Source: Octopus vulgaris
Lineage: Eukaryota
NCBI GenBank assembly: GCA_951406725.2
Contig: OX597814.1
Span: 172,608,001 to 172,672,000, forward strand
Length of the DNA stretch: 64,000 nucleotides
Direction of reading: 5' to 3'
Below the pieces are notes generated by a model that saw only the letters and a list, made by a program, of their open reading frames with translations, had not been told where the DNA came from and searched no databases. The number at the start of each line of letters is the position of its first letter. The stretch's first letter is position 1. This document shows, in pieces, positions 17,280 through 47,125 of this stretch. Position numbers and translations under genes: made by a program.

Positions 17280-17347
17280 TTTATATTTATAAAATCTAAA
17301 CAGATGGCAAATTAAACAACAAGATGATGCACGGAATATTCGCAGTT

Positions 17348-17416
17348 GAGTTTTCCTCTTCAGTCAAACACGCAAAATATCATAACAGTTTCACGCTAAT
17401 TACATTTGATACTGTT
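17348..17416 (-). ncRNA. Permuted (pseudoknot-order) hammerhead candidate, family 1 copy a
   Basis: AACAGT-A|TCAAATG taattagcgt GAAACTGTT atgatattttgcg TGTTTGA CTGAAGA GGAAAACTC. Confidence 0.55.
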
Positions 17417-18288
17417 GAATTTTCCAGGCACCAGTGCTTTTATAAGCTACTGGGAAAGGCTAGTGAATGTGTGCTAAGACAGAAAAAAAACAAGACCTTA
17501 TATCAATACAACAGACAACGAATCATGCATATATACCAGCACGATATATACAGCTATATACAAACGAAGAAAATAAATAGTAATAATTACACCTATGCTA
17601 TAAATACAACAGAAAGAGCTTTACAGTTGTCGTACGAACTAAGAGAAAATAGAGTAAGACCCAGAGAAGAGAACGGACGTAGGAAGAGCATGACCAATCT
17701 GGTCAAAAGTAGGACGAAAAAGAATGACACCGCTTTTATCGGGCACCGATCACGTGGTATGGAATAGGAAGTGTTGAGAAAAGGAAAGAGATGGGGGGGG
17801 GGGGGGCAAGAGGGAGAGAAAGTGAGAGAGAGAGACAAAGAGAGAACGAAGGAGCAGAGTAAGAAAGAGAGAGATGGGGGAAGGTGCAAAGAAGGCCAGT
17901 TATGGGGGAAAGATAGGGTAAGGTTAGAGAAAGTGAAAGTAAGATTAAATGTGGATAAAGATAGAGTAAGAGGAAAGAGGGGGAGGCAAAGAGAGTAAGA
18001 TGAGGGGTGGAAACAGATAGGGTAAGAGGGAAGGAAGGGAGAGAGAGCACGAAAACGAAAGGAAGACAGAGGGAGAAAGAGTGGAGATAGGGTTAAGAGT
18101 GGCACAGAAATATTCAAGGAATATTTTACAATAACGTAAACAAACGATGTACATTGCGCTACATGGATGTATCAAGAGTTGAACAGAAAGAATACGCCGA
18201 AAAGTTAGAAGAAAGCACAGTGAACGGAAAAGTAAACGAAGACTAAACGGACGGCAAATTAGACAAGATACACGGAATATTCATAGCT

Positions 18289-18357
18289 GAGTTTTCCTCT
18301 TCAGTCAAAGGCGCAAAGTATCGTAACGGTTTCGCACCAATTACCTTTGATACTGTT
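18289..18357 (-). ncRNA. Permuted hammerhead candidate, family 1 copy b
   Basis: AACAGT-A|TCAAAGG taattggtgc GAAACCGTT acgatactttgcg CCTTTGA CTGAAGA GGAAAACTC. Confidence 0.55.
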
Positions 18358-18599
18358 CAGTTTTGCAGGCGCCACACACAGACATACACACATGCTCACA
18401 CACTCACACATAGATACATATATTCTCATATAGATGAATATGCACGTGTGTGTGCTTGTATGCGTGCATTTATGAATGAAAATGAGTGGACTGATGATAA
18501 GAAAGATTGTTGGATGTGTGGCTGGAGGTAAGTTTGATCACCTTTAGGACTGCTAGTTGTAGTTACACTCCATGACTACTTCACTATTGTTGGCGTATA

Positions 18600-23272: not shown

Positions 23273-23753
23273 GATGAGTGTATTTTTACCTTGTTAACAA
23301 TTAACACGGAAGAAATAAATAAATAGTTACCAGGGCAGCAAAAATCTCACAAGTAAAGGTGCTGTAACTCCTTGTTTATAAAGGTAGAAACTTCGTGTTT
23401 ACGTTGAATATTTTGAATAATATATGAATAAATAAATGGAGTTTAACGCAGGTGTAATCAAATATTTTTACTTTCGACACATGTTTCGAAAATTCCACTG
23501 ATACTATTCAAAAGAATAAATGGTATAAACATTGCAATCTTCTCAGGAAAGTGAAAAAAACGAAACTCGTCAATAAGACATTTTAGCAAAAAATGATGGA
23601 TTTGTATAGCGATTGACAGAACGCTATTAATATTGTTTAAAAAAACGTTATATGATATAACGTCATAAGTAGCTAACAGAAAGAGTAGGGATATTAATAG
23701 TGAATGTTAAATATAAAGGAAATTAAATTTTAAATTATATATAATGATAGAGA

Positions 23754-24354
23754 CTACTTATATGCACTAAATGTATGTTTTTGCCAATGCTTACATCTGT
23801 ATGCTCGCTCTATAACCGTGTTTACTAGAGTATTTTTAGAAAAAGTAATGAAAAATAGCTCAGAATTGCAGAGAAGACAGAATTTCTTGCCTTTGTCATA
23901 TGGTATCGAAATTGAGAGAATCAACCATTCTAAATGAAATTGTTCATTGTGGCCTTTTAAATCCCAAATCAGTTTGCTGAGACCGGTACTATTCCGTTTA
24001 TTTCTATCCCTAAATGTTGAGTAATGGATAGAAATTCTTTTAGATAACTCTAACGATGTGCTTCCAATGTAAAATCGTACTTTATTACGAGTACTGATTA
24101 TACGCTGGTATATAGAATTTTTAATCTTAGAGTTACTTGACATAAACTTAATTCTATTGGAATTGAGTTCAGATACAATAACCTTGTTATTAATATTTCT
24201 AGAGGGTTGGATGGTATTCGCTAAATTAATGTTAGTATTAGTAAATGTATTAATATTTAACAGTTTGTTGCTATGAGAAGAGATAATTTGCAAGAGATTT
24301 TTTGTGTTTGAAAAACCTATCCTAACCTTATGTGGATTGATAATAGAGTAATAT
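23754..24354 (-). pseudogene. PLE C-terminal GIY-YIG endonuclease (truncated ORF)
   Basis: NSIYQ...FYIGST...KRISIH...STGLSKLIWDLK...CLLCNSE...LVN...CKH, typical of the PLE endonuclease C-terminus. Confidence 0.88.
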
Positions 24355-24790
24355 ACTGATTTGGGATTTAAAAGACCACAATGAACAATTTCATTTAGAC
24401 TGGCTGATTCTCTCAATTTCGATACCATATGACAAAGGCAAGAAATTCTGTCTTCTCTGCAATTCTGAGCTATTTTTCATTATTTTTTTCTAAAAATACT
24501 CTAGTAAACACGGAGCGAGCATACAGATGTATAGAGCGAGCATACAGATGTAAGCATTGGCAAAAACATACATTTAGTGCATATAAGTAGTCTCTATCAT
24601 TATATATAATTTAAAATTTAATTTCCTTTATATTTAACATTCACTATTAATATCCCTACTCTTTCTGTTAGCTACTTATGACGTTATATCATATAAGGTT
24701 TTTTTAAACAATATTAATAGCGTTCTGTCTATCGCTATACAAATCCATCATTTTTTGCTAAAATGTCTTATTGACGAGTTTCGTTTTTTC

Positions 24791-31273: not shown

Positions 31274-31829
31274 AACAAACACACAAAGGAAACATACACA
31301 CAACCGTTCATAAATATACCTAACAATGAATGTTAACAAGAACATAAACATACAAAATAGTTTATGATCATCCCCCACAGAAACGTGTTTATGGAAAGCC
31401 AACGCGTGATCTCTCACAAACCCGCACACAGGCATTGTAGTCACACATGTAGGCATGCAATATTCCCTATCGTATGGAAACAAAGATATGCACAGAGAGA
31501 GACTCACATGCACGCATACTTAAACCATTTCAAAATCACGTACATGCATCCGCATGAAAACAAAAAAAATACATACGCACATTCTCACACAAGCACGCTC
31601 AGGGCACCGTAACGCGGTTTACAGTGTTCCGAATAGCAGGCATGAGGATACGAATTCACACACCCACCCATTTGAATATACGCACGCTGACACACAGACA
31701 CACTGACACACACCCAAAAGCACGCAGCAACAGACACACCCACAAACAAGCACAAGCTCATTTCAGAATCTCGTGTACGTGATGCATTAATAGGCATGAA
31801 CGCACGCGCACACACACACACACACACAC

Positions 31830-33130
31830 ACAGATATGCACCCACATACACACATATACAAATACGAACAGGAACACATGCACACGCTCACACACACACA
31901 CACGCACACACACACACAGATATGCACCCACATACATATACAAATACAAACAGGAACACATGCACACGCACACACACACATACAGAGATATGCACCCACA
32001 TACATACATATACAAATACGAACAGGAACACATGCACATGCACACGCTGACACACACACACACACACACGCACACAGACACACAGATATGCACCCACATA
32101 CATACATATACAAATACGAACAGGAACACATGCACGCTCACACACACACACACAAACACAGATATGCACCCACATACATACATATACAAATACGAACAGG
32201 AACACATGCACATGCACACGCTCACACACACACACACACACACGCACACAGACACACAGATATGCACCCACATACATACATATACAAATACGAACAGGAA
32301 CACATGCACGCTCACACACACACACACACACACGCACACACACACACAGATATGCACCCACATATATATACATATACAAATACGAACAGGAACACATGCA
32401 CATGCACACGCACACGCACACGCACACACACACAGATATGCACCCACATACATACATATACAAATACGAACAGGAACACATGCACGCTCACACACACACA
32501 CACACACACACGCACACACACACACAGATATGCACCCACATATATATACATATACAAATACGAACAGGAACACATGCACATGCACACGCACACGCACACA
32601 CACACAGATATGCACCCACATACATACATATACAAATACGAACAGGAACACATGCACATGCACACGCACACGCACACACACACACACAGATATGCACCCA
32701 CATACATACATATACAAATACGAACAGGAACACATACACACGCTCACACACACACACGCACACACACACACACAGATATACATATACAAATACGATATAC
32801 AAATATACATATACAAATACACTTACATACATATACAAATACGAACAGGAACACATGCACATGCACACGCTCACACACACACACACACACACACAGATAT
32901 GCACCCACATATATATATATACACAAATACGAACAGGAACACATGCACACGCACGCACACACACACAGATATGCACCCACATACATACATATACAAATAC
33001 GAACAGGAACACATGCACATGCACACGCTGACACACACACACGCACACACACACACACACACACAGATATGCACCCACATATATATATATATATATATAC
33101 AAATACGAACAGGAACACATGCACACGCGC
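31830..33130. repeat. Composite minisatellite, ~15 units: constant ~50-bp core plus variable (CA)n
   Basis: Core CAGATATGCACCCACATACATACATATACAAATACGAACAGGAACACATGCAC. Confidence 0.95.
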
Positions 33131-40402: not shown

Positions 40403-41180
40403 ACCAAGGCGGAAGCCCTCCGCCAACTTCAAGATACCTCCTTCTACTGCCCTCTGCCCTCCAACCCCACGGCCGGCTACCAACAGACTGTATCCTCCAG
40501 TATTCATGACCTCATCGCCTCCTCTCTCTCCCCACCACCTCTAACTTCATTGTCCGCAACCCTCGTAATCCCACAATTTACTTCCTCCCCAAAATCCACA
40601 AACGTAACAACCCTGACCGCCTGATCGTCTCCGCCTGCAACTGCCCCACCGAACTCATCTCCAGATATCTTGACCGTGTCCTTTCCTCCTAGTGGCTTCC
40701 CTCCCCTCTCACATCCATAACACCAACCATGCTCTTTGTTCAACTCTTTCTCCTTCCCTCCTGGCCCCCTAAACTTCTCTTCAATCTTGACAACAAGAGT
40801 CTATACACAGTGATCCCTCACCACGAGGAGCTGCGTGCACTCCGATATTTCCTCGACCTTCGATCCAACCCTCATCCAGACACATCCATACTTCTTCGTC
40901 TGGCCGAACTTGTCATTTAACTGCTTCTCGTTCGCGGGTGATTTTTACCAGCAGTTCTCGGGATGGCCATGGGAACGATAATGGGCCCCAACTATGCGAA
41001 CCTATTCGTCGGCTACGTTACGGCCCAAATATTCTCAAGTTTCACTGGTCCCATTCCCGAGCTATGTGGCCGTTATACCTACGACTGTATCGGTGCGACC
41101 TCACTCTCCGCGAACATCTAGACTCCTTCCTTTCTTTTGTCAAATCTTTCCATCATGCCCTTTTGTCAAATCTTTCCATC
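40403..41180 (+). pseudogene. Penelope-like reverse transcriptase fragment, frameshifted
   Basis: EALRQLQDTSFY, IYFLPKIHK..PDRLIVSACNCPTE, LDNKSLYTVIPH, MAMGTIMGPNYANLFVG, RYTYDCIG (motif C). Confidence 0.92.
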
Positions 41181-41435
41181 CGACCTATTGTTGTATTTTG
41201 GAATGGTCATGTGGCCAGTTTAGCGAATGAAGACACGCAATATATTGGTAAAATTGGCAACATGACCATCCCTAAATATAACACTATCTGTTTCAACACG
41301 AGTTCACATCAAGAATGTTGCAAAACGAATACATTAACCTATACATGTATTTATATGTATATGTATATATATATATATAGTTTGTTTTTACTGCTTTATT
41401 CTCTTTGTTCTGTCTTTTACTGTTTTTACTTTTAT

Positions 41436-41504
41436 TGTCTTGTCGTCAGCTTCGGAACGCGGAGCAGACGAAATAGGGACAACTGAAGAAGGGGAATATT
41501 CCTT
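41436..41504 (+). ncRNA. Permuted hammerhead candidate, family 2 copy a (in repeat ~41380-41640)
   Basis: TGT-C|TTGTC gtcagcttc GGAACG cggagcagacgaaatagg GACAA CTGAAGA AGGGG aata TTCCT. Confidence 0.4.
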
Positions 41505-41696
41505 GTGTTGTATGTCTTGTACTTTGTTCTTTCGTTGTTTGAAAAATAGTTCTTTTTCATGTTTTTGTTTTTATGTTTTCGTTTCTCATTGTGTTCAACG
41601 TTTTTTGTGATGTCCTGTACCCAATTCTGCATGTATATTTACATATAGCTGTAAGTATGTACATATATGTGTATATGCATATATTTATATTATTTT

Positions 41697-41744
<48 letters not shown>

Positions 41745-42175
41745 GCGCTGTCATTGGTTTGCATGTCTACGATATCTATTATGTATATAAACGTTATGGT
41801 ATATTCGTGTGCATGCATGCTTGTATATCTGCATAAGTGTATTCATTCTAATGCGTTTATGTGTATCGATATCTATGTGTCAGTCCGTGCGTGCTTGCAT
41901 GCGTGCACGCTTGCTTGCGTGTGTGTATGTACGCGAGGGTATGGAGTGCGTGTGGACGCTTCTCGACTTACAGCATCACTTATCTGCGTTCTAGATTATT
42001 TAACTATGTGGAAGTGCATACGTTTGTAGATGTAACGAGTTTGAATGTATGTGTGATTATTTTCATATAACTTTGAGCTCCTATGCGTTTATTTAACGGT
42101 ATTTCAAAAAACGCGGTTGTATGAATGAGTCTAACGTATACATTCTACGTGTGTCATTGTACGCATGTGCATCAA

Positions 42176-42217
<42 letters not shown>

Positions 42218-42667
42218 CAAGACAAGAGAATATTTCTTAAGATTACTAAGTGTCTCTCCCTTTCTCTCTGTTTCTCACTATATAAATGCATATTTATATA
42301 TATGTATACGCATGCATACTTGTACTTACACGCACATACACACTTTCATGCGGACGCTTTCATGGACGCTTCATTTTTATGCTGTTGCCGCATTATGTCG
42401 TACGCGAATGAGAGGATTTGCATCCCCAACGTAGAATTTTTGATGTAATACATGTCCTTGAGGTAGTAGTTGTGCGCGGCTGAAGAAGGCCATAGACACA
42501 CATTATGCATTGTTATAAATCCGTCTAATAAAGGCCCGAAACATATGTACCGCTGAATCCTTGGCATCATGTTTTTATTTTGGTTAATTTACTCCACCAC
42601 CTACACCACCAAACGGTATATACAGGTGCTTACAATTATCAAGTACTCTCCCTATATATATATATAT

Positions 42668-42732
<65 letters not shown>

Positions 42733-42924
42733 GGGAGAGAGAGAGTGGGGAGAGTGAGAGAGAAAGAGATAAATTTTAAAATATTTCCCCCGCGTTACGT
42801 GATTAATGCATTCCTGAAAATATTACCGCAACGCGAAAACCAATAGCACAAAATTATTTTCCTGCTCTTTGACATGATATAAAGTGATAATGTGTTACGA
42901 CGTTTCTTTTTTGAACAGTGATAT

Positions 42925-43160
42925 ATATTTCTTTATTGCCCACAAGGGGCTAAACACAGAGGGGACAAACAAGGACAGACAAAGGGATTAAGTCGATTAC
43001 AACGACTCCCAGTGCGAAACTGGTACTTTATTTATCGACCCCGAAAGGATGAAAGGCAAAGTCGACCTCGGCGGAATTTGAACTCAGAACGTAGCGGCAG
43101 ACGAAATACCGCTAAGCATTTCGCCCGGCGTGCTAACGTTTCTGCCAGCTCGCCGCCTTA
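42925..43160 (-). mobile_element. SINE A, full length, young, AATAAA-type tail
   Basis: Clean A/B boxes and core; tail ...GCCCCTTGTGGGCAATAAAGAAAT. Confidence 0.93.
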
Positions 43161-43842
43161 ATAGAAAGGCAAAACAGAAATTTAATCAACACGACTAGTT
43201 CATGCATGAAAGCAAAATTTTCTAAACGGCATCGTACAAAATGTGTGTTAAAAAAAATTTCAAAAGAAATATGCTACGGAATGAATAAGAACCATGTTAT
43301 CATAATAGGGTATTGTTCTTATCACAGAAGATGTTGATTACTGCGTGAAGGATGGCCGTGCAGGAATGAGAGCTTCTGAAACGAAGAGGGACACTCCCCT
43401 GTCTTACAATTCATTATCATCAACATCTACTTGATGGATAAAGAGCTTATCCAAAATCGTTTGAAGTTTATGGTGTATCAGCTTTTTATGTTACTATGGT
43501 ATAGGAACTAAGCTCATTGTAAACTTCTCTGGTAATTTTTATGTTGGATTAAGGTTATTGACAACAGAATCTTGCAGACCTTCTTGTATAGATACTAAAC
43601 CCATCAGTTATACTCTTTGCAGTCAATTTTAGTTGAGTTGACTGAATTTCCGTATTCTCAACTTTCGTTTTTTATAACAGTATCAGTTTCTCTTTACTAT
43701 AGTCTTGGGGTGACCAAGGTGTGTTTAGTACACGAAAACTGAAAGAAGCTTATCGCATATATATTCGTGTATTCTTATATTTGTTTCAGTCGTTTGATTG
43801 CGAAATACACACACACACACACGCAGGCACACACGCACACAC

Positions 43843-43890
<48 letters not shown>

Positions 43891-43924
43891 ATAATAATAA
43901 TAATAATAATAATTATAATAATAA

Positions 43925-44280
43925 TAATAATTGGCTGAATGTAGGTGAAGATCAGCGGATGCGTAGACAAAGTGAAGTTGCAGTAGAGGAGAGGACTGCC
44001 AATCAATATAATGTAGAAAACTCTGTATTATGAGATGATATGACTGAGGAACAGAGAAACCTCAGGATTACACTCGAGGATATAGTAGTTACAAGAACAG
44101 AGACCAAGCCGGTGAATTTGAGAAGCTTCGAACACAACAATGTGAAAAGCGCGACCCAAAAGGTTGATGAGATTCTGAAAGACATTCTGACAAAAGATCA
44201 AGCGGAAACAAGGGACTTGATAGGATCCGCTTCATTTTCAGTAGGTGCAGGGCAAAGGCACGGAAGGGGTCTATAAAAAT
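43925..44280 (+). pseudogene. R4/Dong-like non-LTR retrotransposon fragment (pre-RT region)
   Basis: KVDEILKDILTKDQAETRDLIGSAS resembles the region upstream of R4/Dong RT; begins at an (AAT)n array. Confidence 0.45.
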
Positions 44281-45672
44281 GTGATCGAGTAGAAAAGGTA
44301 TGGATGTCCAAATCTTAATGTGCCAATAAGACCACAAAATTATCCTAGATCTTTATAATGATTGGGGACGAGTCAATGAACTCAATCAAAGGAATGGTGC
44401 CGTAAAGAAGGCCTAATTGGTAAACATGTGTACCTATAGATACGCGGTGAGTTTTTGGATCAGGGAAAATGTAAAGGAAAAGGAAAAGAAAAGCAAGGAA
44501 AAACATGGTGGCAGGTTGCAGCATTGCAACAAAGATAGTAGCAAGCCCCAAAGGAGAAGACGAAGTCTACTACTACCGCAGTTTTCGTGAGCAGCATCGT
44601 ACGCAGCTCCGGGATTATGTGTGGTGTGCGTGCACATGTACGTGTGTGTATCTCCACACATTTGGTAGTTCATTTACGTAGTGCATTTTCTATTGTATAT
44701 TTGGACCCTTGTGGCCAATAAAGAAAAGATTATGAATCTCATTGTTCTTGCTTTTGTTATATTACAGGCTACTATTCTTGTTATTAACATTGATAGGGAT
44801 ACTGCTGTTTTTGTATTGCAACTGTTATGATTGTTTGTTATTATAGTTGTTGTTATCATTATCAATATTGTTGTTGTTATTGCTGTTGGCGGTGATGTTG
44901 TTGTTCTTAATGTTGCTATTTCTTTTCACCTTATTTTGTTCTCCCTGACAACAGTTTCTTTTGCTTCGCTTTACTTCGCTCTCTTATTATATTTTTGTTT
45001 CGCTTATTCGTTTCTCGCTTCTCCTTCATTCTTTCATATATTGGATCATTGTCTCTTTCTCCCGCTCTTCAAATATGGCGTTGTATTCCACAAATCTTCA
45101 TTCCTCCGTCTTAAAACTCCTCTTTCACAACTCTACCCTCCCAAAACACACGCACACATAATCTCTCTCTCTCTTTTTCTGCTTCTCCTTCTTCCCAAAC
45201 TAACTCTCCTTCCTTTTCCTCCTCTCCCCATTAGCACCTCTCCATCTCCTCCCTTGCTCATCTACTCCTTTCCCTCACCTACTCGCTTTTCTCCCCTACA
45301 CTTTCTAGTTGATAACCTCATTTTGCCGCCCTCCCATCTGCAGTCTACAAGTTTCCACAGCAAGTCTTCATACATCCATTCATTCATACACTCAGTGCTA
45401 TGTCTCTGCTACTCTTCCCTATGCGCCTAAGCCATTCCGCGCCAGACCGCACCAGACCGCTCCATGCCACACCACAAAACATGGCACTACATAACGCCAC
45501 ATCCCCGTCATACACCGCCATCTATACAATAACTTGTGCCACACAAGGTAGCTAATTCGTTCGTCTCGTGCCGCGTCTGTGCGTCGACGTATACCACACT
45601 CCACATCTCACCACGCAACTTCATTGTTGGTTACTAGAGCTTGAAAAATGTATGCATGCACACACAAACACA

Positions 45673-45769
<97 letters not shown>

Positions 45770-45979
45770 GTACGTATATATACATTTATATACAGAGGCG
45801 TTTATGCATGCATACGTGTTTGTTACGTGTATGTGGAAGTCAATATATATATATATATGTGTGTGTGTGTGTACATACATTGTGTGTGTGTGTGCGTGTG
45901 TATGTGTGTGCGTGTGCATGTGTGTGTGTGTATGCATATATATATATCAATGTATCAATATATATATATACATATATAT

Positions 45980-46085
45980 AGCCGTGACTATGTGATAAGA
46001 AGACTAGTTCCCGGCCACATGGTTCCAGGTTCAGACGACTGCGTAGCACCTTGGGCAAGTGTCTTGTACTATAGAGTCGGGCTAT
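45980..46085 (+). mobile_element. SINE B head fragment
   Basis: CCACATGGTTCCAGGTTCAG...CACCTTGGGCAAGTGTCTT. Confidence 0.75.
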
Positions 46086-46380
46086 AGAGAAATTAAACCT
46101 TAATATCTTGAAATAATCTCCCCTCCTTTTTTCCTACATATAAAACAATGTAGAGAAAATAGAATCCGCACTCTAAACGTAGAGTAAAATATAATTATTC
46201 CATGTGAAAAATTACGCAATATGTGCGTTGATTATATTGGAGTACCATTTCATCAGAATGGCGTGAAGACGTGGTTATAAAAATATGAATTATAAGTTGC
46301 TTACATAGGGAAGGAAAATGACCATAATTATGACATAAAAATACAACTTAATGAAAATGGATGTAAATGATACAATAATA

Positions 46381-46421
<41 letters not shown>

Positions 46422-46887
46422 CAGCAGCAACTGCAGTAGTAGTAGTAGTAGGAGTAGGAGGAGTAGTAGTAGTAGTAGGAGTAGTAGAAGAAGAAGAAGA
46501 AGAAGAAGAAGAAGACGACGACAACGAAGAAGAAGAAGAAGAAAGAAATATTCTACTACTACTATTACTACTACTCATTACTATTGTATCTCTCCCTCTC
46601 TCTCTCCCTCACTCTTCTTCCTTGACTCTCTCGTCGGTCTCACGTGACCAGCAGCTATCGTTCTTTTTTCCTCTCGCTTTAGAAGAGATAAGACCTATTT
46701 TGCCTTTCTCTTGTTATAGCTCCTTTCTCCAGCATTCACCACTTCATTTCGTTATGGCTTAACAACCCTCACCGTTTGTTTTTACTGTTTTGTTCTCACT
46801 GTTCTGTTTTTGTTACCACTTTAACCTTCCGCAAAATTCCAATTTTTATTTATTTTGCTTTGCGGGAAGGACTGTTTTAACGAAGTA

Positions 46888-46957
46888 GCGTCTTGTCCCA
46901 ACCTTCGGAACGCGAAGTATAAAAAACAGGGGACAACTGATGAAGGGATTGTTCTTT
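46888..46957 (+). ncRNA. Permuted hammerhead candidate, family 2 copy b (in repeat ~46790-47095)
   Basis: GCGT-C|TTGTCCC aaccttc GGAACGC gaagtataaaaaacag GGGACAA CTGATGA AGGGA ttg TTCTT. Confidence 0.5.
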
Positions 46958-47125
46958 ATGTTGCCTGTCTCGTTTCTCTATTTGTTTCTTTCGTTGTCCG
47001 AAAATAAGTTCGTTTTCCATGTTTTTGTTTTTTTATGTTCCCGTTTTCATTTTGTTCACGTTTTTTGACGTCCTGTACCCATATATGCATGTATATATAC
47101 ATATATATATATGTAGTTATATACA

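Follow-up and report, generated by a model that had tools for sequence, protein, structure and literature searches.

The window analysed here, a stretch of 64,000 nt from contig OX597814.1 of the 2.8-Gb Octopus vulgaris genome, holds two copies, A and B, of a repeat in which the conserved boxes of a hammerhead ribozyme stand in the non-circular order cut site, GAAA, CUGANGA. The intact form of this repeat family is probably a self-cleaving hammerhead with a rewired backbone, likely inherited from Naiad Penelope-like elements (PLEs), that would cut the element RNA after GUC. Judged from covariation, two helices, P5 and P6, are inserted into the core and part A9 from G10.1, since the stem II strand bearing G10.1 sits upstream of the cleavage site, and a further helix, P4, bridges stems I and II. 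The motif is thus probably a topological variant of the hammerhead and a Naiad ribozyme.

Pairings of the split core

Read 5′ to 3′, the proposed molecule would begin with P6a, the hairpin P5, the stem II strand carrying G10.1, P4a and one strand of stem III, which leads into a UH cut site. Its second half would run through a stem I strand, a linker, the stem II strand ending in C11.1, GAAA, the other stem III strand, P4b, the second stem I strand, CUGANGA and finally P6b. The pairings in this order are borne out by covariation among the consensus sequences of eight repeat families, each drawn from 30 copies (families A, B, C, D, E, 1 and 3) or from 20 (family N); further families beyond the original pair came from scanning the window and 60 fixed 10-kb stretches of the genome with a descriptor. 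The eight fall into four groups (A–E, 1, 3 and N) that share no blastn similarity with one another within the motif. CUGANGA, GAAA and the UH cleavage triplet are nevertheless kept in the consensus of every family, as is their order, and single variants of the same order occur at four further loci (L192, L281, L331 and L398). The original prediction of a hammerhead-like motif in non-cyclic order, recurring in a repeat unrelated in sequence to family 1, thus holds, and no blastn similarity of A or B to family 1 was found at E<0.01.

Stem II is where the fold departs from that prediction, which had drawn it either from the GGG downstream of the core or from a 5-bp hairpin found there. Bases directly after the core offer the strand before GAAA only 1–2 Watson–Crick pairs, and they pair instead with a strand just 5′ of P5 to form P6 (4–7 bp, and 14 bp in family 3). 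The partner of the strand before GAAA is a 5–6-nt strand starting with G, placed 66–73 nt before C3 in seven families and in the same place in family N. It gives five pairs and is the unique best partner within 150 nt upstream of the cut site in all eight families, the search having been confined to the upstream side after an in-core GAAGG tied with it in A, B and C. The pairs themselves differ between groups (GAAGG/CCUUC in A–C, GAGCA/UGCUC in D and E, GCGCC/GGCGY in family 1, GGCUG/CAGCC in family 3 and GACAC/GUGUC in N), with G10.1 invariant and C11.1 present in seven of the eight consensuses. P5 always lies directly 5′ of G10.1. P4, found in all eight families, pairs the 3′ extension of this stem II strand with the 5′ extension of the stem I strand and runs through an internal loop into stem III; the linker from stem I to stem II measures 1–6 nt, and the gap between P4b and stem I only 0–2 nt in every family. 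As a side observation, the internal loop between stem III and P4 in A, B and E has an AGUA/GAA arrangement, which we take to resemble the sarcin-ricin (loop E) motif.

Exchange of strands between families served as a control for these pairings. Junction-proximal positions paired in 32/32 cases within families for stem I, against 103/168 when strands were swapped; the corresponding counts were 32/32 against 101/192 for stem II, 32/32 against 127/216 for stem III, 31/32 against 67/176 for P4, 32/32 against 101/200 for P5 and 29/32 against 79/144 for P6, or overall 29–32 of 32 within families against 38–61% swapped. The predicted covariation of stems I and III is borne out by the same counts. Among 13 real copies, all 169 cells in stem II, stem III and P5 were paired, 9 of the 13 pairs showed two-sided changes, and slid controls reached only 33–52% pairing; this count covers those three helices, since the alignment had lost register across stem I, P4 and P6. 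Accordingly, stems I, II and III meet at a core with G10.1–C11.1 and A15.1–U16.1, as supported by covariation and the swap controls. The minimum-energy folds of the A, C and D consensuses contain P6, P5, P4 and stem III. Neither copy B (−0.55) nor the near-intact copy L366 (−1.18) had a significant z-score in single-strand folding, as is expected where two stems are pseudoknotted.

The recurrence of the architecture had also been held to argue against chance, and in 664 kb of unselected genome (the window and the 60 stretches, both strands) a descriptor of the full architecture found 7 matches, compared with 8 in all 20 shuffles together (0.4 per shuffle). At a descriptor score of at least 28 there were 6 real matches and 2 in all 20 shuffles. 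Rfam hammerhead models of types I–III gave no match at E≤1e-4 on the near-intact copies L366 and L377, and an Rfam scan of the window returned no hammerhead among its best 150 rows; these scans otherwise yielded only miRNA matches driven by microsatellites.

Families, window copies and the GAAA box

Copy B (46589..47105, + strand) is a 3′ fragment of about 0.5 kb of a non-coding PLE-like repeat, 92% identical by blastn to the consensus of family B, and it ends in (TA)n. Its putative ribozyme begins with the 5′ strand of P6 (46825..46828), whose partner is the AGGG right after A9 (46944..46947). There follows hairpin P5 (46829..46865), in which 46829–46835 pair over 7 bp with 46859–46865 and which ends directly before G10.1. 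The displaced stem II strand GAAGG (G10.1–10.5, 46866..46870) meets CCUUC (46902..46906), the last base of which is C11.1, a pairing supported by compensatory changes. P4 joins 46872..46879 to 46923..46929, the latter abutting stem I; like P6, it was assigned through the pairing analysis of the family. The stem III 5′ strand and the GUC triplet occupy 46888..46892 (GCGU-C), which places the predicted cut between 46892 and 46893. The stem I strand UUGUCCC (46893..46899) forms 7 bp with GGGACAA, which closes on CUGAUGA (46930..46943; C3 is 46937). The G12-A13-A14 box and the second stem III strand (46907..46914) read GGAA, with A13 changed to G at 46908. The letters of copy B are therefore as first described, with GCGU-C, a 7-bp stem I and C-GGAA-CGC inside loop I.

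Copy A does not share this layout, although it had been supposed to. It belongs to subfamily A (41380..41690, + strand; GUC at 41437–41439, GGAA at 41454–41457, CUGAAGA at 41483–41489) and, compared with its subfamily consensus, has lost about 110 nt directly 5′ of GUC, a deletion that takes P6a, P5, the stem II 5′ strand, P4a and most of the stem III 5′ strand. Its stem I (UUGUCGU) makes 5 bp only, and UUGU stands upstream instead of GCGU. The two copies stand for subfamilies of a single repeat, with 78% identity between them in the window and 88% between consensuses. Both carry GGAA and so lack the full hammerhead core of CUGANGA, GAAA and UH that their consensuses retain; they are decayed and probably both inactive.

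A13G cripples a hammerhead, and the GGAA of the window copies had been a caveat to the earlier proposal. Both the A and B consensuses read GAAA. In the first 100 of 494 matches to an A/B pattern left free at A13, that base was A in 69, T in 17, G in 11 and C in 3. GAAA is thus, on the evidence of the letters, the ancestral state and the GGAA of the window decay, because the family consensus and 69 of 100 copies read GAAA. A13, which follows a CpG in CGAAA, changes unusually often in A and B. An escape of A13 mutants from cleavage was considered and not supported: scored by eye, 6 of 20 mutant matches and 5 of 21 with GAAA had a break or inversion at 0..+8.

A first look at the genome gave at least 4035 candidates for family B and at least 1033 for family A, 40 of each being scored, and near-intact natural copies were found at L366:410-552, L242:936-1095 and L321:255-380, all on the − strand. 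Tandem pairs within 1.5 kb occurred at 0–2 of 30 loci in six families (2/30 for A and 2/30 for B, which also had one inverted pair in 30) and at 11 of 30 in family 3. The window, its repeat search dominated by microsatellites, further contains two tandem copies of family 1 with the same architecture on the − strand, one at 18137..18374 (core at 18304), 5′-truncated before P5, and another at 17292..17693 (core at 17363), 941 nt from the first. In families B, D, E, 1 and 3, a CT-rich tract 200–400 nt upstream of the motif is followed by CACGTG (46642–46647 in the window); this box recurs at the 5′ end of Naiad_Ovul and is possibly an internal promoter element. Elsewhere in the window, an inverted repeat at 23555–24789 has 260-nt arms, 99% complementary and 715 nt apart, and is probably a young DNA transposon or a miniature inverted-repeat transposable element, and a minisatellite of CA-rich units of about 80–90 nt fills 31646–32600.

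Naiad elements and the neighbouring reverse transcriptase

The ends of the Naiad_Obim and Naiad_Ovul consensuses display the split architecture and are matched by the family N motif, and an 18-nt piece of the Naiad_Ovul motif has 279 exact matches in the genome, compared with none for a reversed control. With RT (reverse transcriptase) loci examined with 1.5 kb of flank, the family N motif lies 1.0–1.6 kb downstream of a Naiad-type RT, on the same strand, in 12 of the 30 best RT relatives (the query included) and in 6 of 20 more distant matches; no family N motif stood upstream of, or inverted to, the RT in these 30 and 20 loci. The suspicion of a PLE host is supported. At L333 the RT ends about 0.9 kb upstream of the motif; family N fits the Naiad layout of an RT at the end of the open reading frame followed by a 3′ untranslated region (UTR) with the motif, and L333 showed no N-terminal endonuclease (EN). 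There is also a young RT family, sharing about 34% identity with the Naiad RT piece, with open frames of 700–780 aa in many copies (C3:61677169, C12:16775338, C14:18686830 and many more) and no linked motif in the 4 loci examined.

In the snippets available from the published Naiad supplement, inspection by eye places the split form in three Acropora records, Naiad-2_Movir, Naiad_Esco (with a weak stem II), a crustacean record and probably Naiad_Plae, that is, at the 3′ ends of coral, box-jellyfish, squid, crustacean and probably acanthocephalan consensuses. Four records of the nematode section look instead like type CSG with an interaction helix, and several other snippets, from a part of 54 records, are without such a fold. 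The A and B consensuses run at their 3′ ends into (TA)n, and the two families show the (TA)n insertion bias and the tandem and inverted partial copies of Naiads; together with the shared architecture, these traits suggest a Naiad origin for A and B. Families A–E, 1 and 3 are probably non-autonomous or have lost their masters.

A PLE RT fragment had been reported on the same strand as copy A and near it, and it is indeed present, as a broken remnant at 40405..41161 (+ strand) with a C-terminal GIY-YIG-like region and a Cys-rich linker. By motifs it belongs to another, Neptune/Nematis-like PLE family, a label resting on the description in the accessible text of PMC8557442; a Pfam search of the fragment gave no match, and Pfam and PDB searches with the EN region of its family were likewise empty. 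Other sequence and a (TA)n tract stand between this fragment and copy A, and an A/B motif lies near an RT of this family in 1 of 30 loci, that of the window itself. The RT family has its own minimal type-I hammerhead downstream, on the strand of the RT, in 5 of 30 loci. The adjacency is coincidental, because only the locus of the window has an A/B copy nearby and the RT family owns a type-I motif; the RT was accordingly rejected as the partner of the motif. Downstream of this RT family at L035, L037, L043, L048 and L052, a minimal type-I variant has a CUGUGGA- or CUGUUGA-type core with a stem II of 4 bp. The unselected genome stretches also contain several repeat motifs resembling type-I (C-G-S) hammerheads (L123:1843, L147:3879, L155:5317, L177:1953 and 2212, L178:9823 and L123:8827), some with long stem II regions.

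Predicted cleavage, alternatives and known hammerheads

Cleavage after UH (after C46892 in the window) is predicted from the fold, and the positions at which copies are truncated agree with it. Among the first 90 of 280 exact matches to a family B anchor 67 nt downstream of the cut, 25 have their 5′ ends at 0..+19, 7 at +20..+27 and 10 at +28..+66, compared with 2 at −20..−1 and 9 at −100..−21. Expressed per 1000 nt at risk, these rates are 20.5, 11.5, 3.1, 2.1 and 2.7, respectively, and the rate at 0..+19 exceeds both that at −20..−1 (p=4e-5) and the rate of about 2.6 over −100..−1 (p=2e-9). The pile-up suggests cleavage in vivo, and its abrupt halt at position 0 agrees with templates that begin at the cut, with stalling of the RT as a rival cause. 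Three of the 25 ends at 0..+19 are inversion junctions. Inverted junctions within the ribozyme were separately noted at L351, L361, L387, L390, L400 and L457, some at stem I, and suggest template switching through self-complementary strands.

The self-cleaving hammerhead may work as follows. P4 and stem III would join into a single rod with the cut site and GAAA in its end loop; stems I and II would arise where the two strands on either side of the rod's base pair with an end loop of this kind, and P5 stacked on P6 would fill the A9/G10.1 position, held by a one-base bulge in ordinary PLE hammerheads. The truncation ends suggest that reverse transcription would act on an RNA whose 5′ end is set by the cut. 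The docking loop is slightly more likely to come from a second, tandem copy than from the same copy, because in families with short internal loops, and in the coral and crustacean records, the rod looks too stiff to fold back; stiffness was judged by a rough helix-length estimate. Docking between tandem copies would agree with the dimer model of the minimal PLE hammerheads. It may be, although we put this forward tentatively and as falling short of an even chance, that Naiads across animals carry a seventh hammerhead topology, its strand split at A9/G10.1 by two stacked helices and built head-to-tail, so that the base of one rod cuts the loop of another copy and cleavage occurs only with two terminal repeats, the nematode CSG form being a circular permutant.

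The same rewired hammerhead could instead act as a monomer: with the internal loop that separates stem III from P4 as a hinge, the rod would bend back and dock its own end loop. This is a serious possibility that we nonetheless consider somewhat doubtful. Families A–E have 4–8 nt on both sides of the internal loop, enough slack by the same rough estimate, but one side of the loop counts only 2 nt in family 1, and stem III of the coral and crustacean Naiad records, as far as their snippets can be judged by eye, is 10–12 bp long and nearly continuous with P4, allowing no fold-back without melting. Most copies are solo, as the tandem counts above attest, and published SGC ribozymes cleave co-transcriptionally (PMC10085705, accessible text); the 0–2 nt between P4b and stem I speak against the hinge in all eight families.

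Several observations weigh against a self-cleaving Naiad ribozyme altogether. Its covariation derives from few independent events, there being four unrelated sequence groups; P6 is weak in family N; the minimum-energy folds of B, E, family 3 and N differ in part from the model; and the in-core GAAGG of A, B and C can take the same stem II partner, giving an inactive alternative. No Naiad RT was found next to families A–E, 1 or 3, the flanks of A and B mostly spanning only 1.5 kb, and among all loci collected up to the 5′-end mapping one was found only in L333. Insertion of an anole PLE in vitro did not need hammerhead cleavage (PMC11167929). Of 100 A/B matches perfect elsewhere, 31 differ at A13, usually by T or G. 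In three unstranded RNA runs of a related species, about 6% of each being covered, starts did not pile up at the site; the reads include the family, with A at A13, and no RNA records are listed for copy B. The mutability of A13 and the silence of the RNA reads would equally suit a conserved hammerhead-derived fold that no longer cuts, for example an RT binding site at whose structure the enzyme stalls, and so would the scatter of 5′ ends across 0..+27 instead of a single base, together with a lesser cluster at +47..+53 near P6b. Such a fold is unlikely, as all catalytic positions are kept in the four unrelated groups while the stems diverge, and the accumulation of 5′ ends breaks off abruptly at the predicted cut (2 against 25) even though the 5′ half is no less structured.

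Among known systems, the nearest to the rewired hammerhead is type SGC of Eckert et al. (2023; PMC10085705), with which it shares the S-G-C order, a short linker between stems I and II and an extra helix bridging them, here P4. According to the accessible text of that study, type SGC was seen only in metatranscriptomes and type CSG only in metagenomes, neither in genomes of known organisms, one GCS candidate apart, and stem I, CUGANGA and stem II form an unbreakable block, the basis of a permutation rule with three blocks. Here that block is broken at A9/G10.1 by two inserted helices, and many copies reside in an animal genome. That the families are ordinary type-SGC hammerheads, with stem II drawn from the G-run after CUGANGA and incidental upstream matches, is very improbable, for although this run in A–E can make 3–4 pairs with the strand before GAAA if G-U is allowed, the stem II strand that type SGC places 0–2 nt after CUGANGA yields only the 1–2 Watson–Crick pairs noted above (a single one in families 1 and 3), against five at a fixed upstream place with two-sided changes in all eight families, and the G-run covaries with P6a.

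The minimal type-I hammerheads of PLEs, as far as the text of Cervera and de la Peña (2014; PMC4209133) is accessible, have the C-G-S order, form stem II as a local hairpin, keep stem III minimal and palindromic, tolerate a bulge between positions 9 and 10.1 and were proposed to act as dimers in tandem copies. The present motif resembles them in its seat in a PLE terminal repeat, its extra material between 9 and 10.1 and its G10.1–C11.1 pair, and differs in a full-length stem III extended by P4 and in its non-circular order. For Naiads, the accessible text of Craig et al. (2021; PMC8557442) reports no canonical hammerheads and gives eight “half core” cases, including Naiad_Ovul, without a fold; the “HHR_core” and “HHR_half_core” annotations there agree with the present motif in core halves 35–50 nt apart in 3′ UTRs and in the (TA)n preference, whereas a complete fold is proposed here. 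No description of the split topology or of non-circular Naiad hammerheads was found in the literature searched, which excluded subscription-only papers, and nothing on the split topology appears in the accessible parts of PMC13725137, PMC10162972, bioRxiv 2026.07.22.740005 or bioRxiv 2026.09.16.752053. With the S-G-C order already published, the novelty lies in the split core, the animal host and the tie to Naiads.

If the proposed ribozyme is correct, natural non-circular permutation of an RNA extends from anonymous metatranscriptome contigs to a multi-copy element of an animal, and the hammerhead core tolerates a break that the published scheme of six permutations excludes. The descriptor is simple enough to be rerun across genomes, and near-intact natural copies exist. 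The fold may also answer why Naiads, dominant in many invertebrate genomes, were reported to be without hammerheads.

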